NCBI GenBank assembly: GCA_036961325.1
Contig: JBALVF010000002.1
Coordinates: forward strand, 210,733 to 274,732
Reading direction: 5' to 3'
DNA: 64,000 nucleotides
DNA from: Cycloclasticus sp.
GTDB taxonomy: Bacteria > Pseudomonadota > Gammaproteobacteria > Methylococcales > Cycloclasticaceae
Of this stretch, positions 28,390 to 56,843 are shown in pieces (the stretch's first letter is position 1; every line of letters begins with the position of its first letter). A program made the position numbers and the translations under genes. Under the pieces are notes generated by a model. The model was not told where the DNA came from and made no database searches. It saw only the letters and a program-made list of their open reading frames with translations.

Positions 28390-28470
28390 CAAGTTGCTGT
28401 TGTCGCCATGCTGTGCATGGCTGGGACAGCCTACACTGTGTTGCGGCAGCCCCAAAGCAATGCGTTAGGT
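28384..28470 (+). other. attC site
   Basis: R'' ACTTAAC; GCT(G)TTG/CAAAGC; R' GTTAGGT; 87 bp. Confidence 0.88.
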
Positions 28471-28489
28471 TTATGGAGGCAACGGAACT

Positions 28490-28555
28490 AAGGGGTCAAG
28501 TCTTGAATCATGAATTTTCTCGTCGATTATACTAGGCCTCTATGGCTAGACCCTT
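28490..28555. repeat. Degenerate GGGGTC...GACCC inverted-repeat mini-element
   Basis: AAGGGGTCAAG ... CTAGACCCTT, 66 bp; similar size and ends to the elements at 54941 and 56726, different interior. Confidence 0.4.
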
Positions 28556-28593
28556 ACGAATATAATCAAAAAAGCCAGTCTCCATTGACTTCT

Positions 28594-28621
28594 TTGACTT
28601 TATTGGCTTAACTGCTAGAAT
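28594..28621 (+). promoter_or_regulatory. Putative sigma70 promoter for the metal-efflux operon
   Basis: TTGACT-16 nt-TAGAAT, 67 nt upstream of the ATG at 28688. Confidence 0.45.
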
Positions 28622-28687
28622 TCCAATTGTTAAAAGGCTTTGTTAATGCAAAGCGTTGAGTTTAAAACATTTGTTCAGAAACCGACG

Positions 28688-29044
28688 ATGACAAAAAAAC
28701 TGTTGATTCTACTCATATTGATGATGGTGATAGCGCCAGTCGCTTCAGCGTCTAGCCATTGTTCGAATATGGCTACTGATATGGATGTCGTTGATTCAAC
28801 TGATGTGCAGGAAACTAGTGGACATGAGCACCATGCGCAAGCCGATACTCTTCCTGTTGATAGTGATAGCTGTGACTGCGCAGCCAGCATGGATTGCGCC
28901 GGTCACGTTTGTGCTTATGTGATGCCGTATGACGTTGCGGCAAGTCGTTCTATAGTACTCACTGGTTTCTTAACGCTCGATCACACCTTTCCCCTCAGCG
29001 AAACCATTTCTCCTGAAATAAGACCCCCCAGCCTAAGCGTATAA
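28688..29044 (+). CDS. Exported Cys/His/Met-rich small protein (CzcI/DUF2946-like)
   Basis: Signal peptide MTKKLLILLILMMVIAPVASA, GHEHH, CDCAASMDCAGHVC, C-terminal EIRPP; immediately upstream of the RND operon. Confidence 0.65.
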   Translation: MTKKLLILLILMMVIAPVASASSHCSNMATDMDVVDSTDVQETSGHEHHAQADTLPVDSDSCDCAASMDCAGHVCAYVMPYDVAASRSIVLTGFLTLDHTFPLSETISPEIRPPSLSV

Positions 29045-29191
29045 CAGAGGGCTAGTCCGTCTGCTGTTTTTAAACGGCCAGGTATTTACAAGAATATTCC
29101 TACCGTTTACGCCAGTGACGAACTTCGTTCATTGCCCTCTAAAGTTTTTCGATGCTAATTCATTATCGATTTTTATACGCTTGAGGACATT

Positions 29192-30472
29192 ATGGTTTTA
29201 TTTAAGAAACTGGCACTACTAACAATACTTTTAGTTTTATCCAGCACCGCCAGTGCTGAAGAGGCTAGCGTCTTAACGCTAGAGATGGCGCTCGGTATTG
29301 CCGTTCAGAACAACCCAGGTCTGGCTGAAATGCGCGCCCGTTCCGACGCAATGGCGGCGATCCCATCACAGGTGGGAACCTTGCCTGACCCGATGATCAG
29401 TTTTAACGCCTTAAATTTTCCGGTTGATACCTTTGATATTGATCAGGAAAATATGACGCAGCTGCAAACGGGACTGTCTCAGTTGATTCCGTTCCCTGGC
29501 AAATTGGCGCTGCGTGAAGAGGGTGCAGAGCACGAAGCCGAGGCGGCTAATCATAACGTTACAGAAACTCGTTGGTTTTTACTGCGAGACGTTAAAAAAA
29601 CCTGGTGGGCTATTTTTTATTTAGATCACGCGCTAGAGATTATTTCTGCTAATCAGGATTTGTTACGGCAGTTTGTTCAAATCGCACAAACTAAATATCA
29701 GGTGGGTGAGGGACTGCAGCAGGACGTTTTATTAGCGCAACTGGAACTATCTAAGTTACTGGACAATAAACTCAGCTTACAAGCCGCAAGAGACAGGGTT
29801 AGGGCGCAATTAAATGCCTTGCTTGACCGATCAGCTGAACAGCAAATTAATATGCCAGCGATGGTTTTAGAGAAGTTGCCCAAATTACGAGCAGAAGCAG
29901 AACTATTTCAGTTCGCAGAAAATTATCGGGCTTTACTGGCTGCTCAGCGTGAATCTATTAATGCGGCGCAATCACGCTTAGACCTTGCGAAAAAAGACTT
30001 CTATCCAGACTTCAACGTAGGGGCTTTTTATAGCGTCCGAGATGATATGCCATCCGGGCCTGATAGAGCCGATTTTCTCAGTTTAAGACTGAGTATGAAT
30101 CTGCCTATTTTTACCGACACCAAGCAGCAAAAAGCGGTAGATCAACGAAATAAAGAATTATTGCAGCGTAAGTTCAACTTGCGGGATAAATGGAACCGCG
30201 TACGCGCTGAGATATCAACGGCTTATAGCTATTACCAAAAAAGCAGCCAGCAGGTTGAGCTATTCAAAAGCGGCATTATTCCTCAGGCGCGGCAAACCGT
30301 CGCGTCAATGCTTGCGGGATATCAGGTCGATAAGGTCGATTTTCTAAATCTGATACGCAGTCAAATCACGCTTTATAACTACGAAACGCAATACTGGAAG
30401 GCACTAACAGAAGCTAATCAGGCATTGGCAGAATTAACCGCCGTTGTTGGCAAGGAAGAGATTTATGAATAA
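29192..30472 (+). CDS. TolC-family outer-membrane efflux protein (CusC-like)
   Basis: Signal peptide, two OEP-like repeats; first gene of the RND triplet. Confidence 0.88.
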   Translation: MVLFKKLALLTILLVLSSTASAEEASVLTLEMALGIAVQNNPGLAEMRARSDAMAAIPSQVGTLPDPMISFNALNFPVDTFDIDQENMTQLQTGLSQLIPFPGKLALREEGAEHEAEAANHNVTETRWFLLRDVKKTWWAIFYLDHALEIISANQDLLRQFVQIAQTKYQVGEGLQQDVLLAQLELSKLLDNKLSLQAARDRVRAQLNALLDRSAEQQINMPAMVLEKLPKLRAEAELFQFAENYRALLAAQRESINAAQSRLDLAKKDFYPDFNVGAFYSVRDDMPSGPDRADFLSLRLSMNLPIFTDTKQQKAVDQRNKELLQRKFNLRDKWNRVRAEISTAYSYYQKSSQQVELFKSGIIPQARQTVASMLAGYQVDKVDFLNLIRSQITLYNYETQYWKALTEANQALAELTAVVGKEEIYE

Positions 30473-31919
30473 TAAAATAATAGTGATTATGGCACCTGCT
30501 TTATTATTGGCAGGATTGACGGCTGGTTATTGGTTGGCTGGAATGAATCAGCATAAAGAGGCAGCTAGTTCAGAGGCGATGGAACCGAGCATTCTTTTCT
30601 ACCGTAACCCAATGAACCCGGACATTACTTCGCCGTTGCCAGCAAAAGATGATATGGGCATGGATTACTTACCCGTGTATGCGGAAGAAGAAACGCCCAA
30701 AGTAGCGAAAATTCTGTTTTATCGTAACCCTATGAACCCTGATATTACCTCAGCAACACCGGCTCAGGATGATATGGGGATGGATTATATCCCCGTTTTT
30801 GCTGATACCAGTAACGACGACGAAGCGCCGGCGGGCACGGTTAAAATTGACGGTGTGACGACTCAAAATATCGGTGTGCGAACAGCAAAAGCCGTTGAAT
30901 TGGCCTTGTCGCATACCGTTCGAGCCGTTGGCAGGGTGGCCTATGACGAAGAAAAAATGTTGCATTTACACCCTAAAACCGAAGGCTGGATTGAAAAGAT
31001 GCACGTTGATAAAACCGGTCAATGGGTAAAAGAGGACACGGATTTATTGAGTATTTATTCTCCACAGCTGGTCACCAGTCAACAAGAATACTTACTCGCG
31101 CTAAATAATTTGAAGGCGCTTGAAAAAAGTCCAATCGAAGACATACGGCGCGGCGCTGAAGCGTTGGTAAAAAGCGCACGTGAACGATTGAAGTTGCTAG
31201 ATTTTCCTGCGCACCAGATGCGGGAGTTAGATAAAAGCCGACAGATCAAAAAGAGCATTCATATACATACGCCAACGGAAGGTATTGTGATGAAGATAGG
31301 CGCCCGTGAGGGGCAGTTCGTCACGCCTAAAACTGAGATATATATGATCGCCGATTTACGCAAAGTATGGGTGTACGCCAATATTTACGAATATGAACTA
31401 CCGTGGGTTAAAGAGGGTGATTCGGTGGAGATGCAGTTAGTCGGTATTCCAGGGCGAGTTTATAAAGGACACCTGGCCTATATCTATCCCTACGCTGAAT
31501 CTAAAACACGGACCATTAAGGTGCGCTTAGTGTTTGATAACCCTGACCTCCTTTTAAAACCAAATATGTTTGCAGACCTGACTATTAACGCTGGTAAACG
31601 GGCAAATGCGGTGGTGATTCCATCAGAAGCGGTGATCCGTTCAGGTTCTCGCAATCAGGTCTTTGTCGTTCGAGGTCCAGGGAAATTTGAACCGCGTCTG
31701 GTCAGACTAGGGCTGGATTCAAATGGACGGGTCGAAGTGCTTGAAGGTGTTAAAGCGGGAGAGGAAGTCGTTACCTCAGCGCAATTTTTAATCGATTCAG
31801 AATCGAAGCTACGTGAAGCGACGGCGAAAATGTTACAGCTGATGGATGAAAAGAAACAAATGGACGCAACATCAGCTTCAAATAAGCAGGGCGACTCTAT
31901 GGAGATGAACGATGATTAA
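30465..31919 (+). CDS. cusB: RND periplasmic adaptor with two tandem heavy-metal-binding repeats
   Basis: Two copies of FYRNPMNPDITS...DDMGMDYxPV; LLSIYSPQLV, YIYPY, LKPNMFA motifs. ATG at 30465. Confidence 0.88.
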   Translation: MNNKIIVIMAPALLLAGLTAGYWLAGMNQHKEAASSEAMEPSILFYRNPMNPDITSPLPAKDDMGMDYLPVYAEEETPKVAKILFYRNPMNPDITSATPAQDDMGMDYIPVFADTSNDDEAPAGTVKIDGVTTQNIGVRTAKAVELALSHTVRAVGRVAYDEEKMLHLHPKTEGWIEKMHVDKTGQWVKEDTDLLSIYSPQLVTSQQEYLLALNNLKALEKSPIEDIRRGAEALVKSARERLKLLDFPAHQMRELDKSRQIKKSIHIHTPTEGIVMKIGAREGQFVTPKTEIYMIADLRKVWVYANIYEYELPWVKEGDSVEMQLVGIPGRVYKGHLAYIYPYAESKTRTIKVRLVFDNPDLLLKPNMFADLTINAGKRANAVVIPSEAVIRSGSRNQVFVVRGPGKFEPRLVRLGLDSNGRVEVLEGVKAGEEVVTSAQFLIDSESKLREATAKMLQLMDEKKQMDATSASNKQGDSMEMNDD

Positions 31920-34900
31920 TGCAATTATCAATGCCTCCATAAAAGACCGTTTTATGGTATTAATTGCGACGCTGATTATCGCTGTGGCCGGTTTATGGAG
32001 TTATAACAATACGTTTTTAGACGCTATTCCTGATTTATCCGACGTGCAAGTGATTGTTTTTACGAAGTATTCAGGCCAAGCACCGCAAGTCGTTGAAGAT
32101 CAGGTGACCTACCCGTTGACCACCGCGATGCTGTCGGTACCACATTCTAAAATCGTTCGTGGTTATTCTTTTTTTGGTTTGTCGTTTGTCTACATCATTT
32201 TTGAAGACGGTACCGATATGTACTGGGCTCGATCGCGCGTGCTGGAGTCGCTGAATTTTGTTAGCAGTAAACTACCCGAAGGCGTAACGCCGACCCTGGG
32301 TCCAGATGCTACTGGCGTTGGTTGGGTTTATGAGTACGCTCTGGTGGATAAAACCGGTCAGCATGATTTGGCGCAACTGCGTTCAATTCAAGATTGGTAT
32401 TTGCGTTACCCCTTACAGACCGTAGCGGGTGTTGCCGAGGTCGCTTCGGTGGGCGGTTTCGTTAAACAATATCAGGTTGAGGTTGATCCCAATGCGCTAC
32501 AGGCTTATGGCATTCCGTTATCGAAAGTCAAACATGCTATCAAACGCTCGAATAATGACGTCGGTGGCCGTTTAATAGAAATGGCAGAAACCGAATATAT
32601 GGTTCGCGGTTTGGGCTATATCCAGTCACTAGAAGATTTAAATAGTATCCCTGTCGGCGTCGATAGCAACGGCACACCGATTCGTTTGCAGGATATCGCA
32701 AACGTCCATATCGGGCCAGAGCTTAGACGTGGGGTGGTGGAACTAAACGGCGAAGGTGAGGTGGCGGGTGGCGTTGTGATTATGCGTTACGGCGAGAATG
32801 CCTTATCCACCATCCAGGGTGTACGCAAAAAACTGGAAGAGCTGAAGCAGGGCTTACCCGCTGGCGTCGAGATCGTTCCAGTATATGACAGGGGCAACTT
32901 GATAGAAGGAGCTGTCGCCAGTTTAAATACATCGCTATTACAAGAATTAGCCATCGTCAGTTTGGTCGTCATGCTGTTTTTATTACACGCACGCTCTGCG
33001 CTAGTCGCGATTATTACCTTACCGTTAGGCATTTTAATGGCCTTTATCGTGATGAAATTTCAGGGGCTTAACGCGAATATCATGTCTTTGGGTGGTATTG
33101 CGATCACCATTGGGACGATGGTCGATGGCGCTATCGTTATGGTGGAAAATGCGCATAAACACCTGGAACAGTCTGCGGCCAAAAAAGGAGCAGATTTAAC
33201 CATTGACGAGCGGTGGACGGCGATCGCTAACGCTTCACGCGAAGTGGGCCCTGCGTTGTTTTTTTCCTTATTGATTATCACGGTTTCTTTCCTACCCATT
33301 TTTACCATGCAGGCGCAAGAAGGACGGATGTTCAGTCCATTAGCCTTTACCGCAGCGTATGCGATGGCCGCTTCGGCGATACTCGCGGTGACCCTGGTGC
33401 CGGTGATGATGGGTTACTTTATTCGTGGAAAAATTATTTCCGAACGTAAAAACCCGGTCAATCGTTTATTACACGCCGTTCATACGCCGTTATTAAAAAT
33501 GGCGATGCAATGGCGTAAAGTGACCGTTGTTTTAGCGCTTGGCTTATTGGTACTAACGCTTTATCCCTACTCAAAACTCGGCAGCGAATTTATGCCGCCG
33601 CTCGATGAGGGAGATATTTTGTATATGCCAACGACTTTCCCGGGCATCTCCATCACCAAGGCAAAGGAACTGTTGCAGCAGACGGACAAGATTATTAAAA
33701 CCTTTCCGGAAGTGCATCACGTATTCGGTAAGGTAGGTAGGGCAGAAACGGCCACCGACGCCGCGCCACTATCGATGATAGAAACGACGATTAGCCTTAA
33801 ACCGAAAGAAGAATGGCCTGATCCCGATAAAACCACCAAGCAATTAATGAGTGAAATGGATCAGGCGATTAAGTTTCCAGGGCTTGCTAATGCCTGGACG
33901 ATGCCGATTAAAACGCGGATTGATATGTTATCAACGGGCATTAAAACGCCTGTGGGTATCAAGGTTTCCGGGCCGGATTTAAACGTACTGCAAACTATTT
34001 CCGGCGAAATTGAACGGGCCATGAAGACGATTCCCGAAACGACTTCAGCGTTTGGTGATCGCGCGGTAGGGGGTTATTACCTTGATTTTGATATCAACCG
34101 TGAAGCGGCTTCTCGTTATGGTTTAACGGTGGGCGACGTGCAAGACGTTATACAAAGTGCTATCGGCGGGATGAATATTACCGAAACCGTAGAAGGGCTA
34201 GAGCGTTACCCGGTCAACCTGCGTTACCCACGTGAATTACGTGATGACTTTGAAAGCTTGAAGCGGGTGCTGATTCCCACACCGACGGGTAGTCAAATAC
34301 CACTCGTGCAAGTAGCTGAGTTGAACTTCAGGCGTGGCCCACCGGTTATTAAGAGCGAGAATTCTCGGCCGAACGCCTGGATATACGTCGATATTAATAC
34401 CTCTGATATTGGCGGTTTTGTCACCAAAGCGAAACGGGTTTTGGCAGAAAATGTGACCATTCCAGCGGGTTATACGGTGGTTTGGTCCGGCCAATTTGAA
34501 TATATGGAAAGGGCGGCGAAACGTCTGAAAATAGTGGTACCCGCTACCCTTGTCATCATTTTCTTGCTGCTTTATATCCATTTTCGTAATGCCATTGAGC
34601 CGATTATCGTCATGTTGGCACTGCCGTTTGGCGTTATCGGTGGTATCTGGATGATCTATTTAAATGATTACAATTTATCCGTTGCCGTTTATGTGGGCTT
34701 TATTGCTCTAGCGGGGATGGCGGCAGAAATTGGCGTGCTGGTACTCAGCTTCATTGATATGGAAATTGCAAAACGCCGCACGGCGAGTTCAGAGCCACTA
34801 TCAACGGCAGAAATTAGAGAAGCGACGCATTCGGCAACCTCTATGCGCGTCCGTCCCGTCGTTATGACCGCAGTCTCCACCATGGCGGGGCTGGTTCCGA

Positions 34901-35097
34901 TTATGCTCAGTAGTGGAATAGGATCAGATGTAACGCACCGTATAGCCGCTCCGATGTTGGGCGGTATGCTGACTGTATTGATATTAAACCTGCTGGTACT
35001 GCCGGTTATTTATAGCTTTGTCTTGCAACACCAGGAAAGCCAAAAAAACAAATGGTTAACATTGGAAAATGATAACGGTGAAAAGCTCAGGGGATAG
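31912..35097 (+). CDS. cusA: CusA/CzcA-family heavy-metal RND permease (Cu/Ag type)
   Basis: DAIPDLSDVQVI, NIMSLGGIAI, FMPPLDEGD, NAWTMPIKTRIDMLSTG (CusA Met motif). Confidence 0.93.
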   Translation: MINAIINASIKDRFMVLIATLIIAVAGLWSYNNTFLDAIPDLSDVQVIVFTKYSGQAPQVVEDQVTYPLTTAMLSVPHSKIVRGYSFFGLSFVYIIFEDGTDMYWARSRVLESLNFVSSKLPEGVTPTLGPDATGVGWVYEYALVDKTGQHDLAQLRSIQDWYLRYPLQTVAGVAEVASVGGFVKQYQVEVDPNALQAYGIPLSKVKHAIKRSNNDVGGRLIEMAETEYMVRGLGYIQSLEDLNSIPVGVDSNGTPIRLQDIANVHIGPELRRGVVELNGEGEVAGGVVIMRYGENALSTIQGVRKKLEELKQGLPAGVEIVPVYDRGNLIEGAVASLNTSLLQELAIVSLVVMLFLLHARSALVAIITLPLGILMAFIVMKFQGLNANIMSLGGIAITIGTMVDGAIVMVENAHKHLEQSAAKKGADLTIDERWTAIANASREVGPALFFSLLIITVSFLPIFTMQAQEGRMFSPLAFTAAYAMAASAILAVTLVPVMMGYFIRGKIISERKNPVNRLLHAVHTPLLKMAMQWRKVTVVLALGLLVLTLYPYSKLGSEFMPPLDEGDILYMPTTFPGISITKAKELLQQTDKIIKTFPEVHHVFGKVGRAETATDAAPLSMIETTISLKPKEEWPDPDKTTKQLMSEMDQAIKFPGLANAWTMPIKTRIDMLSTGIKTPVGIKVSGPDLNVLQTISGEIERAMKTIPETTSAFGDRAVGGYYLDFDINREAASRYGLTVGDVQDVIQSAIGGMNITETVEGLERYPVNLRYPRELRDDFESLKRVLIPTPTGSQIPLVQVAELNFRRGPPVIKSENSRPNAWIYVDINTSDIGGFVTKAKRVLAENVTIPAGYTVVWSGQFEYMERAAKRLKIVVPATLVIIFLLLYIHFRNAIEPIIVMLALPFGVIGGIWMIYLNDYNLSVAVYVGFIALAGMAAEIGVLVLSFIDMEIAKRRTASSEPLSTAEIREATHSATSMRVRPVVMTAVSTMAGLVPIMLSSGIGSDVTHRIAAPMLGGMLTVLILNLLVLPVIYSFVLQHQESQKNKWLTLENDNGEKLRG

Positions 35098-35266
35098 GCA
35101 TATTTATTAATGCTTAAGTGTCGAGGAGGTTTCCAGCTGGAAGAATTACACGGCAATTATAAGATGACGGGTATCTTAACGTTTAGTAATACATAGACTT
35201 TAGGCTGATGCTAATTACCCTTTGTGTTGTAGAACTTTAAAGGCGAAGTGAATTGCTATCCGTGTG

Positions 35267-35902
35267 TTATATATCAAGTAGATTTTCTTGTAACGCCAAA
35301 TGCACTAATTCGGCAGTGGTGGTCACATTGAGACTTTTTTTAGTTTTACTCAAATAATTGGATACGGTTTTTTTAGATAAATGCATTTCGTTAGATATCT
35401 CACCAATGGATTGCCCCCTGGTTAAGCGTAAAAAAACGTCAAACTCCTTGGAGGTGAGCGCTGATAATGCAGAAATCTTTTGAGGGCCAAGCTGGCTTAA
35501 TGCAATTTTATCGGCTATATCAGGACTGATAAATCTCTTGCCTTTTACAACCTCAGCTAAAGCTTGCATTAGAATAACCCCACTACTTGACTTGGTAACA
35601 TACCCAGTAGCGCCTGCCTTGAAACACCTTTCAACCAGACTTTGGTGATCATACAATGAGGCAACTAAAATATACGCCTTTTCCTGGTGGTTGATAATGC
35701 GATGGATAGAACTCGCTATTCCTATGCCAGGCATCATCACATCAATGACGACTAGATCAGGTAGAAATTCTTTAAAAAGATTAACGGCTTCCTCGCCATT
35801 ACAAGCCTCAGCTACGACTTCGTGTAAGCCTGTCGATTCAAAAAGGCGTCGATAACCTGATCGAACTATTGGGTGGTCATCTGCAATTAGTATACGACTC
35901 AT
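35267..35902 (-). CDS. NarL/LuxR-family response regulator
   Basis: ADDHPIVR, IDVMMPG receiver domain; C-terminal LuxR-type HTH. Confidence 0.9.
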   Translation of the reverse strand: MSRILIADDHPIVRSGYRRLFESTGLHEVVAEACNGEEAVNLFKEFLPDLVVIDVMMPGIGIASSIHRIINHQEKAYILVASLYDHQSLVERCFKAGATGYVTKSSSGVILMQALAEVVKGKRFISPDIADKIALSQLGPQKISALSALTSKEFDVFLRLTRGQSIGEISNEMHLSKKTVSNYLSKTKKSLNVTTTAELVHLALQENLLDI

Positions 35903-35924
35903 TCCTTTACAATATTCCTATTTA

Positions 35925-37371: not shown

Positions 37372-37476
37372 ATGATTTTAAAAAACAAAAAATATTGCAG
37401 AGTGGCAGGTAACTTTATCGCTCATAAGTACCTATCTTCATTGTCGGGCTTATCTCTTAAAACACTTTATCTTTAA
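37372..37476 (+). other. 34-codon ORF in frame with the downstream GGDEF-EAL gene, separated from it by one TAA
   Basis: AAAAGGAGAGG RBS, ATG at 37372, TAA at 37474, then 4 codons to ATG at 37489 in the same frame. Confidence 0.6.
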
Positions 37477-47359: not shown

Positions 47360-48274
47360 ATGAATACAACGTATTACACCTTAGATGTTTTTACTAAAAC
47401 GGCGTTCCAGGGAGCGCAGATAGCTGTTTTTCCATTTGCAGAAAACTTGTCTGATGACCTGCTTCCGCTCATTGCTAAAGAACTTAATTTATCGGAAACG
47501 GTTTTTATTTATCCGTCGGAAGAAGGCAGTAATACGTTTAATATTAGAATTTTTTCCCCCAGAGGTGAGGTGGATTTTGCCGGTCATCCGATCCTGGCGA
47601 CCGCGCATGTATTAGCAGAAACAGGTCAGTTATCAATACAGGGCGATTATACGAGCATCACCTTGAATGAGAAATCAAAAACGATTGTTGCCAATATTTC
47701 CTTGCATGAGTCGGCAAATAAATTTGTCCAGTTCACCCTTCAATGTAACCCCGAAGTGGACCGTTTTACGCCACCTACTGAAGAGTTAGCGCGCTTTCTA
47801 TCGATTGATGAAAGTGATATTGATCAAACCCATTTTCATACCCGTTTAGTATCTGAAGGCCTGCCTTATTTAGTCGTGCCATTGTTGTCCCAAAGCGCTG
47901 TTAGACGAGCGCAATTCGATATTAAGGCGTGGAGTGAGTCCAGTGCGCCCGAAATGGCGGCACAGGAAATTCTTCTATTCAGTGCGAAAACGAATTCGAG
48001 CGATAGTAACTTTCATGGCCGTTTAGTGGGGCCGAGTATCGGCTTTAACGAAGATCCACCGATTGGTTCAGCGATGCCCGCTTTTTGTGGCTACCTGGCT
48101 TCGCACGATCATATTAGAAAAGGCACTTACAGTTTCGCGATCGATCGTGGCACGGTCGTAACGCGAAGAAGCTTATTACATATCGAAATGGATAAGCGCG
48201 TAGGTTGGCCGTTAACACTGAGGGTAGGCGGTGATTCGGTCTTAGTCAGCAAAAACGAACTACTGGTCAACTAA
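47360..48274 (+). CDS. PhzF-family isomerase-like protein
   Basis: DVFT, ELNLSETVF, EVDFAGHP, EDPPIGSA motifs; embedded in the nir/nas operon. Confidence 0.85.
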   Translation: MNTTYYTLDVFTKTAFQGAQIAVFPFAENLSDDLLPLIAKELNLSETVFIYPSEEGSNTFNIRIFSPRGEVDFAGHPILATAHVLAETGQLSIQGDYTSITLNEKSKTIVANISLHESANKFVQFTLQCNPEVDRFTPPTEELARFLSIDESDIDQTHFHTRLVSEGLPYLVVPLLSQSAVRRAQFDIKAWSESSAPEMAAQEILLFSAKTNSSDSNFHGRLVGPSIGFNEDPPIGSAMPAFCGYLASHDHIRKGTYSFAIDRGTVVTRRSLLHIEMDKRVGWPLTLRVGGDSVLVSKNELLVN

Positions 48275-48287
48275 GCGCGAGACAAGC

Positions 48288-50492
48288 ATGTTATTTGGAA
48301 GACATAAAAAGAACCCCATCAAAATGGTCGATAAACAGATCACCAAGTGGAGTTACGCCACCTGTGGTTATTGTTCTGTTGGCTGTTCGATAGAAATTGG
48401 CTCGAATGCAGACGGTAAAATAGTCGGCTCACGTGGCGTTGGTGGGGCGGACGTTAATCGTGGCAAGCTATGCGTAAAAGGCATTTTTGAACACGAGTTG
48501 TTCGAATCTTCAGGCCGAGGCGATAAGCCACTGATGCGCGATGCTATCGAAGAGAGCTATAAAGAAACGACTTGGGATGAAGCTACCAGCAAGGCGGCAA
48601 CAGAGATTCGTCGTATTCAAGAAACATATGGTCGTGATTCCTTCGCGGTTATTTCGACGGGTCAATTACTGACTGAAGAGTTCTACACCCTGGGTAAATT
48701 AACCCGTGGGCTTATCGGCACCAATAATTACGATGGCAACACCACCTTGTGTATGGCTTCTGCCGTTTCGGGCTACAAGCGCTCGTTCGGTTCAGATGGG
48801 CCACCGGGTTGTTACGAAGATTTTGAACACACAGAATGCTTAATGGCCTGGGGTTCGAACTTACCCGAACAGCACCCCATCATTTACTGGCGCTTTCAGG
48901 AAGCGCGTGAAAAACGCGACTTTCCTTTAATAGTTATCGACCCTCGCGTCACCATGTTGGCGCAAAAGGCAGACTATCATTTACCGATTACTCCAGGTAC
49001 AGATTTGGTATTGTTGAACGCATTAGCCTTCGTCATTCTTGATGAAGGTTTAGAGGACAGTGCGTACATTGAAGCAAACACAAACGGACTGGATGAACTA
49101 AAGGCAGAAGTCGCCAATTTCACCCCTGAATTAGCAGAGCCAATTTGTGGCATTGATGCTGAAACTATTCGTACCGTTGCGCGTATCTATGCAAAAGCTA
49201 AAACGGCGATGAGCATTTGGACTATGGGTATCAACCAAAGCACCCACGGTACCGACGGGGTAGTGGGCATCAATAATCTAAGCCTTATTACTGGCAATAT
49301 CGGCAAACCTGGCGGCACAAGCTTATCTATTACGGGTCAATGTAATGCCATGGGTACGCGTGAATGGTCATCTTGTTCTGGCTTACCCGGGTACCGATAT
49401 TTAGAAAGCGAAGCGGACCGAAATGAAATAGGTGAATTTTGGAATGTTGACCCTGAGTTCTTTCCGAAAAAACGTGGGATGGCGCAAACCGATATATTCC
49501 CGGCGATTGAGTCTGGTGAAATTAAGGGCATGTGGTTAGTTGCAACCAATCCAATGACGTCAATGGCGAATACCGAACGTACGCGTAATATACTGAAAAA
49601 ATTAGATTTTCTTGTGGTGCAAGATAGTTACGCCGACGTGGAAACCACGCAGTACGCACATTTGTATTTACCCGCCGCCACCTGGGCAGAAAAAGAAGGT
49701 GTGTTCACCAATACGGAACGGCGTGTCAATATCGTACGTAAAGCGGGTGATGCACCCGGTGATTCGAAATCAGATTTCGATATCTTTAACCTCATAGCCA
49801 AACACTTTCCGAATAACGAGAAAATGACATTTCCGGATAAGCCTGCTGGTGCGTTTGAGGAAATGAAAACGCTATCGAAAGGCCGCCTGGCTGATATCTC
49901 AGGCATGGATCACGACCTGATCGAAAAACAACGCGGCATTCAATGGCCCTATACCAAAGAACAAGCGGATAAAGGCGAGCTACCGCCAGCAGGTGGCAAG
50001 CGTTTATACACGGAAACTGCTTCCTTTCGCTTTGCCGATGGTAAGGCAAAACTTATCGCTATGCCGTTTGTTGATAATAACGAAGTACCCGACGAGCAAT
50101 ACCCTTTTTGGCTAAATTCGGGTCGTTTAGTCGAGCATTTTCACACACGCACCAAAACGGGCAAGCTCGGTAATACCAATAAATATAGCCCGATTCCTTT
50201 TATGGAAATTAACCCCGACGCGGCGATGGACTTAGGCATAGAGCAAGGCGAATACGTTCGCTGTGTATCACGGCGTGGTGATGCAGTTGTGATGGCAATG
50301 CTTACACAACGCGTGCCGGCAAATATGGTGTTTATTCCGTTTCATTACTATGACTGTGTGAACCGTTTATCGCTTGGTCTACTCGATCCATATTCGCGCC
50401 AACCTGCGTATAAGCAAGCGGCGATTAAAATCGAAAAATTGGAAGACCAAAAAGCCGCCGCTCAACTGAGCATGCAACGTCGTAATTTTTAA
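48288..50492 (+). CDS. nasA: Molybdopterin nitrate reductase catalytic subunit (assimilatory type, no Tat signal)
   Basis: CGYCSVGC...LCVKG Fe-S motif, TLCMASAV Mo-ligand loop, GQCNAMG, EKEGVFTNTERR; no RR leader and no C-terminal BFD domain. Confidence 0.85.
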   Translation: MLFGRHKKNPIKMVDKQITKWSYATCGYCSVGCSIEIGSNADGKIVGSRGVGGADVNRGKLCVKGIFEHELFESSGRGDKPLMRDAIEESYKETTWDEATSKAATEIRRIQETYGRDSFAVISTGQLLTEEFYTLGKLTRGLIGTNNYDGNTTLCMASAVSGYKRSFGSDGPPGCYEDFEHTECLMAWGSNLPEQHPIIYWRFQEAREKRDFPLIVIDPRVTMLAQKADYHLPITPGTDLVLLNALAFVILDEGLEDSAYIEANTNGLDELKAEVANFTPELAEPICGIDAETIRTVARIYAKAKTAMSIWTMGINQSTHGTDGVVGINNLSLITGNIGKPGGTSLSITGQCNAMGTREWSSCSGLPGYRYLESEADRNEIGEFWNVDPEFFPKKRGMAQTDIFPAIESGEIKGMWLVATNPMTSMANTERTRNILKKLDFLVVQDSYADVETTQYAHLYLPAATWAEKEGVFTNTERRVNIVRKAGDAPGDSKSDFDIFNLIAKHFPNNEKMTFPDKPAGAFEEMKTLSKGRLADISGMDHDLIEKQRGIQWPYTKEQADKGELPPAGGKRLYTETASFRFADGKAKLIAMPFVDNNEVPDEQYPFWLNSGRLVEHFHTRTKTGKLGNTNKYSPIPFMEINPDAAMDLGIEQGEYVRCVSRRGDAVVMAMLTQRVPANMVFIPFHYYDCVNRLSLGLLDPYSRQPAYKQAAIKIEKLEDQKAAAQLSMQRRNF

Positions 50493-50510
50493 CCTATACA
50501 AAACTCATTT

Positions 50511-52400
50511 ATGTTTGAAGTAAGAAGTGACGAACCAAAATATGCGTTTCTTTGGGATAAAGAAACTAAAGCCAAAAATATCTATGGTGATTCGATTGAA
50601 TTAACCTCTGATCAAGGCGGCTTGCATGGCGTTAGTTTAAATATTAACGGTGATGATGATTTAGGTGAAAACCCAAACCGTTACAAGCAGCACGGCTTTT
50701 ACTTCAATGCCGACAATTGTATTGGTTGTCACGCCTGTGAGGCCGCTTGTAGTGAGAAAAACGACAATCCGGCGCATATATCGTTCCGTTCAGTTGGCTT
50801 CGTAGAAGGCGGTACCTATCCCGATTATCAACGCCTGAATATTTCCATGGCGTGTAACCACTGTGATGACCCGGTTTGTTTAAAAGGTTGCCCAACACGT
50901 GCCTATACCAAATACGCAGAATACGGCGCGGTATTACAAGACCCCGATATTTGTTTTGGTTGCGGCTACTGTACCTGGGTTTGCCCGTACAACGCGCCCC
51001 AGCTTGACCCTGTAAAGGGCGAGGTGAGTAAATGTAATATGTGTGTGGATCGCTTAGAAGTTGGCTTAAAACCATCCTGCGTGTCTGCTTGCCTGGGTAA
51101 TGCGCTAGATTTTGGCGTGATCGAAAACGTGCCAGAAAACCGAGAAGAGTGCAAAACAGAGATACCCGGTTTCCCCACCACTGATATCACGCACCCGAAT
51201 ATTCGCTTCCAGCAGTCTCGGCAAACAAAACCTGAAATGACACGAACCGATTCGATGCCGCTTAAATACCATAAAGATGAAGACAGCGGGAAATACAAGC
51301 CGGTTGTCGATGCTAAAAAAGGCAAACAAAAACACTGGAACTGGAAACCTTTACTGCTAGCGCACGAAAGCTCACACGTGATTTTCACCTTGGCCACGCA
51401 AGCGATAGTCGGTGCCTTTGTGATGTTGATAGCAGGTGATTTACTTGGTTTACCAGCGTTTACCAGCATCACGTCATCGAGTGCTTACTTTGCCTTGCTG
51501 GTGGTAATGAATGTGTTGTTAACCATCGGCTTGTATAAATTGAATATGCACCTCGGTAAACCACACCGGTTCTACCGTGGTTTTTACAATTTACGTCATT
51601 CCCCCGTCAGTCGTGAAATTGCAGGGGTCAGCCTGTTTTATACCAGCTTGCTGGGTTATACCTTTTTTAGCTTATTCAATATTGACATCATCACCACGGC
51701 ATTTGGCGTGCTCGGCCTTATTTCAGGTCCTGTTGGGGTGTTTTATATGTACAAGTTGTACCGCATCAAAGCGCGTCCTTTTTGGAATCACTGGCAAACG
51801 GCCAGTTCCTTTATTGGTACTTGCCTGAGTCTAGGCGCGATCACCATTGCGCTAGTTGCTTTAGCCAGTGGCGATGTCAGCACGCTATCATTTAGTGTCT
51901 TAGTCGGCTGCATACTAGCCGGTCTATTACTTGAAGCAGTTGGACATATCGCCCACGCCAAAGACATTAGTAACGGAGAAGGTGAGGGCGCCGCGTCCTG
52001 GTATCTACAAACGACCCAATATGGTTGGCCTTTTATCATCAGTAATATCTTATTGGCATGCGCTATCGCGTTAGCGGGTGTATTAATTTTCACCCCAACT
52101 TCAATAGTCGTCTGGGTACTGTTATTCATCACCATGCTATCAACGGCGTTCATTAGACGTTCGTTATTCTTTGCCCTGGTTATTCCCACCACCATGCCGG
52201 GTGCGTTCTTCTGGAAAAACAAAGGTTTCGAAGAACACGCAAAAGAAACCGGCCTCGCGAATATGCAACAGGTTGGTGTTGAGTACGAGCATCACCGTAA
52301 ATTCAAGCTCAACGAGTTGATGGAGACGATCAAAACCACCACGTTTAATGAAGCGTACGAGCAAACAAAAAGCATATTTGTCTGGAAAAACGCTAAATAA
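50511..52400 (+). CDS. DmsB-like 4x[4Fe-4S] domain fused to DmsC-like membrane anchor
   Basis: CIGCHACEAAC, CNHCDDPVCLKGCP, CFGCGYCTWVCP, CNMC...SCVSAC; then about 8 TMs with HLGKPHRFY...SPVSREI. Confidence 0.88.
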   Translation: MFEVRSDEPKYAFLWDKETKAKNIYGDSIELTSDQGGLHGVSLNINGDDDLGENPNRYKQHGFYFNADNCIGCHACEAACSEKNDNPAHISFRSVGFVEGGTYPDYQRLNISMACNHCDDPVCLKGCPTRAYTKYAEYGAVLQDPDICFGCGYCTWVCPYNAPQLDPVKGEVSKCNMCVDRLEVGLKPSCVSACLGNALDFGVIENVPENREECKTEIPGFPTTDITHPNIRFQQSRQTKPEMTRTDSMPLKYHKDEDSGKYKPVVDAKKGKQKHWNWKPLLLAHESSHVIFTLATQAIVGAFVMLIAGDLLGLPAFTSITSSSAYFALLVVMNVLLTIGLYKLNMHLGKPHRFYRGFYNLRHSPVSREIAGVSLFYTSLLGYTFFSLFNIDIITTAFGVLGLISGPVGVFYMYKLYRIKARPFWNHWQTASSFIGTCLSLGAITIALVALASGDVSTLSFSVLVGCILAGLLLEAVGHIAHAKDISNGEGEGAASWYLQTTQYGWPFIISNILLACAIALAGVLIFTPTSIVVWVLLFITMLSTAFIRRSLFFALVIPTTMPGAFFWKNKGFEEHAKETGLANMQQVGVEYEHHRKFKLNELMETIKTTTFNEAYEQTKSIFVWKNAK

Positions 52401-52440
52401 AAAACTCGCAAGCGGAATCTATTGGGTGGTATTGTTAGTA

Positions 52441-52471
52441 CATCGAATGAATTTGCATTCGATGGATTTTT
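52441..52471 (+). terminator. Probable terminator of the nir/nas operon
   Basis: CATCGAATG-loop-CATTCGATG followed by GATTTTT. Confidence 0.5.
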
Positions 52472-52547
52472 AGTTGTCAGCTAACAGAGGGTAACAGTAA
52501 AGTAATTACACAGAAAATTCGTTCCTGTTTTAGTTAAATTAAGAGGG

Positions 52548-53231
52548 TTGTTTTCTCTTAAATTAAACTTGTGGTCTGTGGACATGATAAGTAGATTAGG
52601 CGCTATGTGTGATGATGAACTAATGACTGATGAAGAGTTTCTCGAAGACAGACGAAGTGCTTTACATGAATCAGTAGAGTATTTTTCAGCAGAACATAAA
52701 CCTGAGCGTGAGCAATGGGTCTGCATAGAATTTTTAACAAATTTAGGTCTAGCATTCAATGAAGATGAAGTGCTGTCATCTAAAGAAGACCCACCGGATG
52801 TTCTTTTTCGTGATGCTGCATTTGAAATAAAAGAAATTCTAGATCCGGGACGTAAACGTCATGATGAATTCAAAAAATCCTATCAAAAAGCACTTGAGGC
52901 AACAAAACCTGAGGACCTCCTAACAGAATATACGCCTATTGATATAACGCCTGATCAAATCAGTATATTGATATTAAAAGAATTGGAACGTTTGCAATAT
53001 CGCTACGCGCCTGCTGTGAAAAGTAATTTGGATTTACTCTTCTATGTGAATTTGACTGATAACTTATTAAAGGAAGGCGCAATGCCTTCAGCCCAGCAGT
53101 TCGATACTTTTGAGTGGCGCTCAATTTCTGCTATTTTTGGTTGGGGCGGATTGATTTTCTTTGCCAATGCTATTTCACCAGACTTTATATACTCTAGAGT
53201 AGGCACATTAACCCAAAAAAAGTTTGAATGA
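52548..53231 (+). CDS. DUF1780-family putative endonuclease
   Basis: EREQWVC...EDPPDVLFRDAAFEIKEILDPGR. True start probably a later ATG (MCDDE or MTDEE). Confidence 0.75.
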   Translation: MFSLKLNLWSVDMISRLGAMCDDELMTDEEFLEDRRSALHESVEYFSAEHKPEREQWVCIEFLTNLGLAFNEDEVLSSKEDPPDVLFRDAAFEIKEILDPGRKRHDEFKKSYQKALEATKPEDLLTEYTPIDITPDQISILILKELERLQYRYAPAVKSNLDLLFYVNLTDNLLKEGAMPSAQQFDTFEWRSISAIFGWGGLIFFANAISPDFIYSRVGTLTQKKFE

Positions 53232-53235
53232 ATTC

Positions 53236-53255
53236 GTCTAACAAACCACTCAAGT
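53236..53255 (+). other. Truncated attC (left arm only)
   Basis: GTCTAAC-AAACC-ACTCAAGT just after the DUF1780 stop; no right arm; GGGGTC follows at 53272. Confidence 0.55.
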
Positions 53256-53324
53256 ACTTCGAGAAAGAAACGGGGTCCAACTCGAATTTATTTTATAAAA
53301 TATTAGCTGTTAATTCATAGGGGT

Positions 53325-53620
53325 ATATTCGCTGCCGCGAGGGCGATCATTTCTTTTGTATGCCCATCACCTAAAGGTATAAGTCTCATAACTGCGGATA
53401 AAAAACATCCGCCTATTCGGCTAAAAGCTACGAACCAAAGAAAAAGGCACCCTGATCGCAACAATCAGTCATTTTTCGGGTTCGCGCTAAACTCGCTACG
53501 CTCAAACAACGCACTCTCTATTCCGAAAAACAACTAATTGCTAGCGCGATAAAGGGGAGAGAAAAGCCGTTAACTGGTCGGTTTTTTTTGATTTAACTCC
53601 CCTTTTACCTCACCGAAGAA
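53325..53620. repeat. Structured intergenic repeat-like element
   Basis: Contains TTTCTTTTG...AACCAAAGAAAAAGGCACCC and AACTCGCTACGCTCAAAC motifs that I recognise from dispersed proteobacterial repeats; internal GCGGAT/ATCCGC hairpin; boundaries approximate. Confidence 0.45.
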
Positions 53621-53818
53621 TAGATACTTTTTCCAACCGCTGAGGAACTCGCCCTTTAGGGTGAAACCTGATACTGAATACGACGCAAAGCAAATTGTTT
53701 ATTAAAAAGGTAATTAATTTACAAGGGCTGTTAGAATTTTAAAAAGTCGTGGAATTTGAAGCAATGATGGATTAGATTAAGCAGGGAGCTAACGAATTAT
53801 GTGTGAAAAGGGAAATAC

Positions 53819-54013
53819 ATGGATGCTGCTTTAAGCAATTTTGCCGCGACAATAATATCCTTCGTCGTTTTAATTGTAGGTGTATATGTGGTAATTACAT
53901 TTACCGTTCATTATGGTTTGAAAAATGTAATTACAAACAGAAAATTAAGAAACGACATAATTAAGCTAGCATCAGTTATTGCTTTCGGTGCGATTGCAAT
54001 GTCGATATATTAG
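53819..54013 (+). CDS. Small two-TM hypothetical protein
   Basis: 64 aa with AAAGGG RBS and two hydrophobic segments. Confidence 0.55.
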   Translation: MDAALSNFAATIISFVVLIVGVYVVITFTVHYGLKNVITNRKLRNDIIKLASVIAFGAIAMSIY

Positions 54014-54127
54014 GAAGCAACACATTTAAAAAAATGACAGGCAGATTAAATGCGATAAGGAAAAATCTGTAGCTCCGCCAGACTCCTTGTCTTTTGCGTA
54101 ATACTAAAAAATAATAAAGGGATGTAA

Positions 54128-54904
54128 ATGGATTTCACACCGCTAATTAATCAAGTCATAAGCATGCTCTGGTATCTGCTTCCTATTGGAGTAATTGTTG
54201 CACTAGTTAAATCACCCTGGTTCAAGGGCGTTGTGGGCGAAGCTATCGTAAATCTAAGTGCAAAGCTTTTTCTCGATAAAAAGAAATATCATCTTGTAAA
54301 AAATGTGACTTTGCCAACTGAAGACGGCAGCACACAAATAGATCATATTATTATTTCAAAGTATGGAATATTTGTTGTTGAAACAAAGAATATGAAAGGT
54401 TGGATATTTGGAGGCCCTAATCAAAAAATGTGGACACAAAAGATTTACAAACATTCTAGTAAATTTCAAAACCCGTTACACCAGAATTATAAACATACCA
54501 AAACGTTACAATCATTATTAGAGCTAAGCGATGAGCAAATATTCTCTGTTGTCGTATTCGTTGGTGACAGCACGTTTAAAACCGAAATGCCAGATAACGT
54601 AACCTACGGCAGAGGCTATATCCGATTTATACACTCCAAAACACAAGTTCATTTAAGCGACCAACAAGTTAAAGAAATAACAACTAAAATTCAATCCGGT
54701 AGGCTAACGCCCTCATTTAAAACAAACCGGGAGCATGTAAAGCACGTTAAATCGATCATAGCCGAGAAAGATAAAGTCCAAACTTGCCCTAAATGCGGTA
54801 GTAATATGTTGTTAAGAGATGTTAAAAAAGGGCAAAATGCAGGCAATAAATTTTGGGGTTGCTCGACGTTTCCAAAATGTAGGGGCGTTGTAAATGTTAC
54901 GTAA
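54128..54904 (+). CDS. NERD-domain nuclease-related protein with C-terminal topoisomerase-type C4 zinc ribbon
   Basis: TQIDHIIISKYGIFVVETKNMKG; CPKCG...FWGCSTFPKC. Confidence 0.9.
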   Translation: MDFTPLINQVISMLWYLLPIGVIVALVKSPWFKGVVGEAIVNLSAKLFLDKKKYHLVKNVTLPTEDGSTQIDHIIISKYGIFVVETKNMKGWIFGGPNQKMWTQKIYKHSSKFQNPLHQNYKHTKTLQSLLELSDEQIFSVVVFVGDSTFKTEMPDNVTYGRGYIRFIHSKTQVHLSDQQVKEITTKIQSGRLTPSFKTNREHVKHVKSIIAEKDKVQTCPKCGSNMLLRDVKKGQNAGNKFWGCSTFPKCRGVVNVT

Positions 54905-54940
54905 TCATTACTTCAAAACGTTTGTGTAAAGATACACACG

Positions 54941-55017
54941 TGATATTTGGGGTCAGAGTAAAAACTATTCAATGATCTCTATATTTACTCAATAATTTTT
55001 ACTCTGACCCCAATTAC
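54941..55017. mobile_element. 77-bp MITE-like element, copy 1
   Basis: Identical to 56726..56802; 18-bp perfect inverted repeat TTGGGGTCAGAGTAAAAA. Confidence 0.8.
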
Positions 55018-55088
55018 CTGATTATCGGACTTCGTTTAACGGGCGATTACAAAGAATTATTTACAGTCTCTAGCAATTAGTTACTCGA

Positions 55089-56450
55089 CTAGTTTTCTGT
55101 TTCGGGTGCCGGAGCCTCGAGGACATTAGTTTTAATGAGCCAGCGCTCCATCAGCTTGGCGGCAACCAGGTCACCGCAAACATTAACAGACGTTCGGCTC
55201 ATATCAAGAATACGGTCGACACCCATAATCAGAACAATACCCGTTGTTGGGATACCGGCTGTCTCTAGTACCATGGCAAGAATGATAATCCCGACACCAG
55301 GTGTTCCCGGTGAACCGATGGATGCGCCAACGGCAGTGACGATAACCAACAGTAATGCACTCGTACTCAGGTCTACACCATAGACTTGCGCCAGAAATAT
55401 GGTTGCAACACCCTGGTACAATGCCGTGCCATTCATGTTGATAGTGGCACCCAGCGGGATCACGAACTGGGAAACTGAAGGACTTACCCCAAGTTTTTCC
55501 TCTGCTGTCTTAATAGAAAGCGGCATAACAGCGGCAGAGCTGGAGGTGGAGAATGCCAATAACAGAACGTCCCGGGTATTGCGTAAGAAATGCAAGGGTG
55601 ACTCTCTGGCAAAAACATATATGAGCAACAGGTACATTGACGTAAGTATCGCCAGACCGAGTAACACAGTACCGACATATACACCCATTCCCAGTATCGC
55701 ATTTAACCCTATTTTGGTGGTGAGTTGCGCCATCAGTCCGAACACGGCAATTGGCGCAAGCCGCATCGCCCAGCCGACTACCGTCATACAGACTTCCTGA
55801 AGCGAAGCCATCAAATCAAGTAAGGGCTTGGACTGGTCGGCCTTCATCATTACGAGTGCAACGCCCATGATAGCGGCAAAGAGTACAACCTGTAGCATTT
55901 GCCCTTCAACCATAGATGTTAACGGGTTGGTAGGGAGTATAGTCACCAGCGTTTGCGGTAGCTCGGACAGGGTAGGCATTGTTGCATGCGCAGAAGGGGG
56001 TGCTGCCCCACTGGTTGCCAATGTAGTTTTTAGACTGCCGGCGTCAACAAAGCTACCGGGATTGATCAGTTTGGCAACACCCAGGCCAATGATGATGGCA
56101 ATGGTGGTGGTAATAACAAAATAAACCACGACACCGATTCCCATCTTGCGTAACTGCTCAAAACTTTCACTGGATGTTAGACCACGCACGACAGAGGCAA
56201 AGATTAATGGCATCACGATCATTTGGATAAGGGTCAGGAACAATTGCCCCGGTAATGCCAGCCAGTTTCCCACTGTGGTTGCGGTTTCGGCTGGAAGCCA
56301 TCCTGTTGTAGGACCAATTAGCATGCCTGTTGCAATACCCAGCAACATACCTATTAGTACTTTTAACCATAGGCGTCCTTGTACAAGTTTGGTCAGGTGT
56401 TTGCTGAGATAGTTGAACGGGTTATTCGCTGTAATATATTCAATAATCAT
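55089..56450 (-). CDS. Dicarboxylate/amino acid:cation symporter (DAACS/GltP family)
   Basis: FSTSSSAAVMP, GATINMNGTALY, GVDRILDMSRT motifs. ATG at 56450 preferred. Confidence 0.92.
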   Translation of the reverse strand: MIIEYITANNPFNYLSKHLTKLVQGRLWLKVLIGMLLGIATGMLIGPTTGWLPAETATTVGNWLALPGQLFLTLIQMIVMPLIFASVVRGLTSSESFEQLRKMGIGVVVYFVITTTIAIIIGLGVAKLINPGSFVDAGSLKTTLATSGAAPPSAHATMPTLSELPQTLVTILPTNPLTSMVEGQMLQVVLFAAIMGVALVMMKADQSKPLLDLMASLQEVCMTVVGWAMRLAPIAVFGLMAQLTTKIGLNAILGMGVYVGTVLLGLAILTSMYLLLIYVFARESPLHFLRNTRDVLLLAFSTSSSAAVMPLSIKTAEEKLGVSPSVSQFVIPLGATINMNGTALYQGVATIFLAQVYGVDLSTSALLLVIVTAVGASIGSPGTPGVGIIILAMVLETAGIPTTGIVLIMGVDRILDMSRTSVNVCGDLVAAKLMERWLIKTNVLEAPAPETEN

Positions 56451-56725
56451 GTGCTTGCCTGTATATTTTTGTGTGGAGACACTAGATGAAATCAATAGCA
56501 TAACATAACACTATGTTATAGATTAACGACCTAGCAGCTGCCTTAGGGGGCCGCATTGAAAAATGAAAACGAATTTTTCTACAGCTGAAAGTCTGTTCAC
56601 AAGATTGTAGAAGCTGGTAAACCAGATGGCGGAAATAATTATTGGAAAAACGCGTAGGCCGAAGAAGAAGCCCGGCGATAGACATTAATTTTACTCAGGT
56701 ACTTATTTCATAAGGACTATTGTTA

Positions 56726-56802
56726 TGATATTTGGGGTCAGAGTAAAAACTATTCAATGATCTCTATATTTACTCAATAATTTTTACTCTGACCCCAATT
56801 AC
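56726..56802. mobile_element. 77-bp MITE-like element, copy 2 (direct orientation)
   Basis: Identical to 54941..55017. Confidence 0.8.
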
Positions 56803-56843
56803 TTCACTTCACTACATAGTCGCCTTTGATGGCGGCGTAATGC
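56803..56843 (+). other. attC right-arm remnant
   Basis: CTTCACTACATAGTCGCCTTTGATGGCGGC-GTAATGC, directly after the element and 12 nt before the next gene; core GTT reads GTA. Confidence 0.5.

Follow-up and report, generated by a model that had tools for sequence, protein, structure and literature searches.

The 64-kb window of Cycloclasticus sp. DNA considered here (contig JBALVF010000002.1; coordinates are window positions unless another locus is named) contains an exact 77-nucleotide (nt) direct repeat at 54941-55017 and 56726-56802, and its second copy stands directly in front of the right half of an attC site. This raises the question of what the repeat is, and whether elements of its kind seek out attC sites and immobilize gene cassettes. 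An original prediction, made from the window alone, had supposed so for four GGGGTC-ended mini-elements, regarded as copies of one family and placed where cassette arrays break off. These four turn out to be the two copies of the 77-nt element (family A), one element of a second repeat (family B) and a chance GGGGTC at 53272. We consider it likely that the two 77-nt sequences are non-autonomous dimers of a TIRYT-type terminal inverted repeat (TIR), and that the dead attC next to one of them is a local accident.

Both copies have the same orientation, and neither is assigned to a strand. Copy 1 (54941..55017) lies between the 3' ends of the NERD and SDF genes, and copy 2 (56726..56802) between the divergent SDF and Pyr_excise genes. 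Each is built of two 26-nt arms, 92% complementary, around a 21-nt spacer (in copy 1 the arms are at 54944-54969 and 54991-55016), and the core of the arm is TTGGGGTCAGAGTAAAAA. Perfect GGGGTCAGAGT(AAAAA) arms occur four times in the window, compared with 0.34-0.47 expected by chance, and the GGGGTCAGAGT positions form two inverted pairs, 54949/55011 and 56734/56796. The 16-mer GGGGTCAGAGTAAAAA was found only at the four arm sites, with no further site in the window at up to 3 mismatches. As single-stranded DNA the 77-nt element is predicted to adopt a single long hairpin (-17.9 kcal/mol, z = -8.1). The dimer is asymmetric, with GATAT at the left and TTAC at the right, and it has no AAC...GTT boxes on either strand; hence it fails the definition of an attC site, whereas the true attC sites of the window have these boxes. 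No transposase gene, nor any other gene, is carried by the window copies, and because of this the dimers are classed as non-autonomous, as had been predicted.

The arm is widespread. A scan with TTGGGGTCAGAGTAAAAA as query, using one genome per species, gave at least 120 loci from many orders of Gammaproteobacteria, and every family A count given here is among the matches listed from these loci. Most matches are pairs of a plus and a minus arm separated by 40-130 nt, most often by 75-78 nt, and in three pairs the distance is 790-940 nt. The part of the arm that also brackets a transposase gene in other Gammaproteobacteria (see below) is 16-23 nt long, and in the 55 dimers the arm is conserved and the spacer unrelated or variable. 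Long open frames make up 83% of the DNA of the loci and hold only 13% of the 243 arms. The flanks outside TTGGGG...CCCCAA vary between copies yet stay complementary to each other, with a mean extension of 4.0 nt compared with 0.33 expected. GATAT/ATATC is the commonest flank pair, and GTAA/TTAC, GGAACAT/ATGTTCC and others were also seen. Complementary flanks of this kind point to an extension of the inverted repeat rather than to a target duplication. Furthermore, a partial arm fragment is present no more than 30 nt outside 15 of the 55 dimers, compared with 3.4% at random positions.

Clustering of the open reading frames (ORFs) of these loci gave one family, comprising seven proteins. Six of the seven match Pfam Y1_Tnp (2.5e-15 to 3e-08), and REP_Tyr_transpos was the best NCBIfam match for all four members run (61-71 bits), the NCBIfam IS200 model scoring far lower (20-28 bits). 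The first solved structure matched by a profile of the Y1 proteins was E. coli TnpA_REP (4ER8). The proteins have 230-241 residues and are only 51-63% identical; the HUH motif (HVHLL) and the tyrosine motif (RYIELNP) are invariant across the six aligned, in which the C-terminal extension is conserved as well. The gene is bracketed exactly by perfect arms in two loci, designated L006 (1914..2700) and L013 (88..892), and a single arm adjoins it in L047, L031 and L021. The arm of L006 has 23 nt in common with that of the window. The layout recurs in two isolate records, for a plasmid 'transposase' of Iodobacter fluviatilis (WP_130108377.1), with related ends AACTGGGGTCAGAGCAAA, and for an unannotated homologue of Pseudoalteromonas sp. 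THAF3, with related ends AAAGGGTCAGAGTTGTTG, the right one reiterated four times.

Two details of the right end were seen alongside. The stop codon of the transposase gene lies inside the right arm in L013 (877-892) and L047 (4181-4196), where TTTTTACTCTGA encodes the last residues EFLL and the stop. Tandem partial copies of the right end, such as GACCCCAAACTTCGACCCCAAACTTCAAACTTC, are frequent (L006, L013, L012, L050, L128 and others), and these reiterated ends may be a footprint of the transposition chemistry.

This architecture has been described by Di Nocera et al. (2013), who named it TIRtron and its enzyme TIRYT (PMC3733652). The enzyme, a Y1/HUH tyrosine transposase, is a relative of the transposases associated with repetitive extragenic palindromic (REP) sequences, and TIRtron is the name of the whole unit; the motif given for the TIR is GGGGWSAS, and such repeats are scattered as singles, dimers or clusters (PMC3733652). 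Quentin et al. (2018) treat TIRYT as subclass 2.1 of TnpA_REP, formed by long proteins with a C-terminal extension (PMC6006769). The GGGGTCAG end fits GGGGWSAS at 8 of 8 positions. A literature search for the arm TTGGGGTCAGAGTAAAAA returned primers only. The original prediction had linked its ends to a Y1/HUH class, and this is borne out by the fit to GGGGWSAS together with the genes matching Y1_Tnp that lie between identical arms in L006 and L013. The repeat thereby gains a name and a class of mechanism, that of a TIRYT-type terminal-repeat dimer from an already published family.

What, then, has happened at the attC? Copy 2 is followed at 56803..56843 (plus strand) by GTCGCCTTTGATGGCGGCGTAATGC, the remnant of an attC right arm, in which the R' core reads GTAATGC (56837-56843) as against GTTATAA and from which the left arm is absent. 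We compared this region with contigs L121-L126, which cover the Pyr_excise/NERD region, and with the unitig depths and contig joints of four metagenome runs that hold it (X1-X4). L122 and L123 encode an identical Pyr_excise protein and have at that place a complete attC, ending GCGTTATAATG(A/C)AAAAGG, so that the predicted position of copy 2 directly before an attC right arm is confirmed. In the window, L121, L126 and a contig of X4 the dimer is present, the left arm is gone and the core is shortened to GCGTAATGC; the remnant core carries a 3-nt deletion. The dimer and its right-hand neighborhood recur in L121 and L126 with one base changed. A complementary left arm for the remnant was sought in the window and in L121-L126 and none was found. 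Because the left arm is gone and 3 nt of the core are deleted, the attC upstream of Pyr_excise is very likely, indeed almost certainly, non-functional.

Both sides of the dimer vary between strains. At the right junction there are three alleles, all starting at AATTAC| and keeping 60, around 35 and 29 nt of the attC remnant. At the left junction there are at least five different partners, namely the hairpin behind NERD, the region upstream of SDF, a small ORF cut short in L121, a transposase gene of the IS256 insertion sequence (IS) family cut at codon 22 in L126, and two other metagenome contexts. The IS256 identity of the L126 flank is by DNA similarity, and the short truncated ORFs that L121 and L126 have to the left of the dimer match no Pfam family; the L121 fragment may be DUF1059-like. 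As the ends of the dimer coincide with several truncated flanks, the dimer, judged from these contigs, marks a rearrangement hotspot. The depth of the dimer unitig is 440/17/18/68 in X1-X4, compared with a backbone of around 500/400/60/130, which corresponds, for this population, to roughly one copy or less per genome. All alleles have the one asymmetric dimer and the one core deletion, and for this reason we read a single ancestral insertion, followed by end-anchored deletions and rearrangements, as more parsimonious than repeated insertion.

Copy 1 had been predicted to stand behind a degenerate attC left arm. It is a family A dimer, but the 'arm' is a plain terminator-like hairpin behind the NERD gene (54918..54941, plus strand, fold -7.1 kcal/mol) which adjoins copy 1, and in L125 the identical NERD hairpin gives way to unrelated DNA exactly at 54941. 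L125 has NERD and the hairpin, then 52 nt of other DNA and directly the cupin gene (window joint 54940/54941 and 57284), i.e. an allele without both dimers, SDF and Pyr_excise.

Some of the neighboring DNA is itself mobile or repeated. In L126 (reverse strand) the IS256-family element starts right behind a partial arm TATTTGGGGTC, around 120 nt to the left of the dimer, a layout that looks as if the element had inserted into another dimer copy and its transposase had then been cut by the complete dimer. L121 has a Tn3-family end (GGGGTTCTGGGGACATTCC...) and then a DUF4158 transposase fragment (34-75 and 173-361), and the 33 nt before the Tn3-family end are 91% identical to window 53424-53456. 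In the window, the 51-nt segment between copy 1 and the SDF stop codon (55020-55070) reaches a depth of 1250-1350 in X2 and X3 (backbone 400 and 60), where it lies in another, fixed context. A minus-strand attC candidate behind SDF (55025-55085) has the boxes but folds with only -4 kcal/mol, and was not counted as an attC.

Several points weigh against the assignment of the dimers to TIRYT and against the history proposed for this site. The REP_Tyr_transpos scores are under the NCBIfam cut-off of 80 bits. The literature places a helix-turn-helix (HTH)-like domain (Bac_DnaA_C, HTH_23 or HTH_28) in the C-terminal extension of TIRYT, and the C-terminal 90-100 residues of the proteins found here match no Pfam family even at E<=10. 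A TIRYT gene was looked for in the 64-kb window and none was found, and a pair of filled and empty sites for the dimer was not recovered. The nested-deletion pattern at the right junction also fits repeated independent insertions into one attC. Finally, we know of no study of the biochemistry of a TIRYT enzyme.

The alternative from which the work set out is that of a non-autonomous family which recognizes folded attC hairpins, inserts there and so immobilizes cassettes. It would account for the finding that a dimer stands in for one half, the left one, of the attC that L122 and L123 keep whole, and for a right junction at three depths within one attC, which could mean repeated hits. It would also suit family B, whose distance from a preceding attC core is 21 nt in the window and 18 nt in one other metagenome context. 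Across other genomes, however, no excess near attC was seen at the family arms. GTTRRRY boxes up to 45 nt outside the 242 oriented arms number 12, with 12.2 expected, and crude attC-like pairs in 873 kb number 36, with 39 in shuffles. These pairs come from a home-made attC finder (box complementarity and folding) that is noisy, its strict form recovering 2 of 8 true sites and its loose form being flooded with matches inside genes, so that it served only as a crude enrichment control; a MAFFT alignment of eight attC sites was structurally inconsistent in the L''/L' region. The two nearest candidates, in the flanks of L041 and L014, are not attC, and on its left side the dimer is in no case flanked by an attC left arm. 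The one asymmetric dimer and the one 3-nt core deletion in all dimer alleles favor a single ancestral event, and family B leaves the neighboring attC intact and lacks an attC core in three of its four other contexts. Elements inside the arrays are weak evidence in themselves, because the arrays hold 43% of the non-coding DNA of the window. We therefore hold attC targeting to be quite unlikely as a habit of the family, around whose arms attC-like boxes stand at chance level, the kind of outcome that had been set beforehand as speaking against it. Judged by these sequence counts, the attC disruption is a local accident and the co-location of family A with attC is not systematic; the predicted inactivation stands for one site, with its left arm gone and its core mutated, and not as a property of the family. 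It is likewise rather doubtful that the dimers and the SDF gene form a composite unit, a TIRtron in which cargo has taken the place of the transposase, or that SDF was inserted or inverted by recombination between dimers. SDF (55089..56501, minus strand; sodium:dicarboxylate symporter, Pfam SDF 1.9e-119) is indeed enclosed by identical dimers in direct orientation and lies on the strand opposite to all surrounding cassettes, at the matching right junction L121 and L126 lack SDF and have one dimer only, and L014 also carries two identical dimers, 3.4 kb apart. Set against this, the dimer-SDF-dimer arrangement was found at no second locus, and in X4 SDF is linked to Pyr_excise and not to NERD, its downstream context differing from 55072 on and lacking copy 1. 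Repeat families of this kind commonly have identical master copies, and two independent insertions explain the picture.

Two further readings concern the nature of the repeat itself. A miniature inverted-repeat transposable element (MITE) of a classical DDE insertion sequence, for instance an IS630-like one with a TA or ATAT target duplication, would fit the ATAT on both sides of 29 of the 55 dimers and the TA that borders the window copies. The only gene found between these ends among the matches listed is nevertheless a Y1 transposase, and the flanks other than ATAT are inverted-complementary and not direct repeats, only the palindromic ATAT being ambiguous; a DDE origin is thus very improbable. 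The other is a structural or regulatory hairpin selected by the host, such as a terminator, an mRNA stabilizer or a protein-binding site, and is compatible with a TIRYT-type origin. In its favor, 18 nt of the arm are unchanged across many orders, against only 51-63% identity for the proteins, and the positions of the arm are extragenic. But no T-run follows the dimer hairpin, a promoter/terminator consensus scan at the dimers gave no matches, and Rfam gave nothing at gathering thresholds and, at E<=1, only hairpin look-alikes far under threshold, none of them credible. About one copy or fewer in the population, partial tandem duplications of the ends and truncated flanks also point to activity at the level of DNA, and we regard host selection as an improbable explanation.

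For the TIRYT-type dimer we therefore propose the following account. The dimers would be copied in trans by a transposase acting on the single-stranded hairpin, as has been proposed for REPINs and RAYTs. One dimer would have inserted into the attC that precedes the Pyr_excise cassette, or beside it, and the breakpoints at its ends would have arisen from end-anchored deletions and rearrangements, either via the transposase or through the fragility of the palindrome. Given that there is no TIRYT gene in the window and about one dimer copy per genome or fewer, the dimer in this population is probably a relic, or an import with neighboring DNA.

The second repeat, family B, came to light at the other array ends. 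The original prediction had placed an element at 28490..28555, after the last attC of array 2; the element is real and so is the attC, but the element belongs to family B and the attC is intact. We delimit it as 28484..28567 (plus strand), with weak 12-nt terminal inverted repeats TAAGGGGTCAAG / CTAGACCCTTA. A second copy is at 10565..10650 (minus strand), with a conserved multi-copy core at 10612-10648. A 31-nt core, TAAGGGG(T)CAAGyCTTGAATCrTGAATTyTC, is common to the two copies (p<0.0005); in the second it corresponds to minus-strand 10624-10648. In the four metagenome runs both B cores are covered several times more deeply than the DNA around them, and they occur with other flanks. Family B has no hairpin (z = -0.2), its site at 28492 agrees with the family A repeat only in GGGGTC(A), and local alignment of 28484-28567 with the 77-nt family A element was no better than with shuffles (p 0.35). 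Both copies lie where strain-variable cassette DNA meets backbone, at arrays 1 and 2. The GGGG of the 28484 copy follows, at 21 nt, the intact core GTTAGGT of the last attC of array 2 (28384..28470, plus strand; R'' ACTTAAC, R' GTTAGGT). Among the other metagenome contexts of B, one has GTTAGAA 18 nt before GGGG and three have no attC core. There is also an allele that lacks the element: in X1 and X4 the attC core GCGGCGTTAGTAAAAAC is joined straight to backbone at around 28575-28589 without B.

Similarity of B to the TIR of Pseudoalteromonas sp. THAF3 (10605-10660, p around 0.002; 28480-28529, p around 0.014; both uncorrected for six tests) is only suggestive, and on this ground B may be a solitary TIR that belongs to a different TIRYT lineage. 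Family B was sought in plasmids, viral contigs and the fetched loci with no match, and no gene between B-type ends was found in the viral contigs or fetched loci.

The arrays themselves form three clusters of attC sites, at around 7400-10650, 23430-28470 and 52400-57860. No integron integrase gene was found anywhere in the 64-kb window, and the clusters are thus attC arrays without an integrase; a scan of the window for tRNA genes found none. Array 1 has attC sites at 8436-8522 and 9722-9778, and none was found after the PEMT-like gene at its end. Array 2 has a chain at 24741-24804, 26653-26739, 27628-27687 and 28384-28470, in which each R' matches the next R''. Its last cassette (27690-28483) is skipped in some contigs of X1 and X4, with 27689 joined to 28484, in keeping with the gain or loss of a cassette. 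A 300-nt repeat with 92% identity (6900-7199 and 23575-23874) runs on to around 7470 and 24140. Array 1 is preceded by a full beta-CASP/RMMBL gene, array 2 by a C-terminal fragment of that gene; after each comes a conserved stretch that ends in CTAATAACTTGTTAGGC or CTAATAACTTGTTATAA. Arrays 1 and 2 have a duplicated proximal module in common. At the far end of array 3, 57613-57861 is a further strain-variable joint: L121 and L126 have 115 nt in place of its 248 nt, and one contig of X1 passes over the stretch.

Array 3 also holds the GGGGTC at 53272..53277 (plus strand), which had been taken for an element end behind an attC left arm. It is a chance hexamer, bare GGGGTC occurring 14 times in the window compared with 14.2 expected; its agreement with the family A repeat goes no further than GGGGTC(A), and alignment of 53263-53345 with the 77-nt element was no better than with shuffles (p 0.07). 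In three contigs the hexamer belongs to single-copy DNA that runs through from the DUF1780 gene, one contig having one G fewer, and repeated DNA starts only at around 53324-53358. The candidate left arm at around 53235 consists only of an R''-like box, GTCTAAC. No database record was found for the exact DUF1780 protein sequence, nor for that of SDF. Further on, 53302-53735 has 5-10 times the depth of its neighbors in the four metagenome runs, with many joints and loose ends, and is probably a mosaic of repeats. Possibly this is an attC stuffed with repeats between the R''-like GTCTAAC (53236) and an R'-like GTTAGAA at around 53747.

Collectively these data provide a concrete case of a TIRYT-type dimer found together with a dead attC and numerous breakpoints that differ between strains, in a cassette array lacking an integrase, and they add a second small repeat at the junctions of array and backbone. 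Systematic co-location, if true, would bear on the fixation of sedentary cassette arrays. One could go further and imagine that Y1 end repeats (A, and perhaps B as a second lineage) are drawn to the single-stranded hairpin at attC cores of chromosomal arrays or just 3' of them, where anchored deletions from their active ends would destroy attC sites and freeze cassettes, or that B is a docking sequence where arrays without an integrase were seeded. We think both ideas unlikely, and either, if true, would tie HUH transposition to integron dynamics.

How do the family A elements compare with known systems? The known attC-targeting elements are IS1111-attC elements and group IIC-attC introns, which are kilobase-sized, encode their own enzyme and take a reproducible position within attC. 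One family A copy likewise sits inside an attC, but the family has no attC preference. REP sequences and bacterial interspersed mosaic elements (BIMEs) are hotspots for IS insertion and rearrangement in enterobacteria and pseudomonads, and the IS256-family element against a partial arm in L126 and the strain breakpoints at the dimer ends are reminiscent of this, although here the hotspot role is known from metagenome contig comparison alone. With IS200/IS605 and the palindrome-associated derivatives of these elements the family has in common the HUH/Y1 chemistry and, presumably, single-stranded DNA substrates, but IS200/IS605 ends are different subterminal hairpins and not inverted repeats of one another. 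REPINs (Bertels & Rainey 2011, PMC3116915) are inverted repeat units that form a hairpin and are tied to RAYTs. They resemble the family A elements in the inverted doublet with variable spacer, the hairpin, the extragenic and non-autonomous character and the flanking Y1 transposase gene. REPs in the strict sense have a GTAG (or CGTC) tag beside a unit that by itself is an imperfect palindrome. Family A arms contain neither GTAG nor CTAC, and one arm alone forms no consistent stem, the hairpin being built from both arms together; the protein is around 70-90 residues longer than RAYTs and under the REP_Tyr_transpos cut-off. By these features the family A elements are neither REPs in the strict sense nor IS200/IS605. 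The closest comparison is with TIRtron/TIRYT. The window differs from that system in having two dimers only, without a transposase gene, and the C-terminal extension of the family A protein gave no HTH match. What agrees is a Y1/HUH protein of around 235 residues with a C-terminal extension, encoded between inverted repeats that start GGGGWSAS, and repeats that are dispersed in family A, too, as singles, dimers and clusters.

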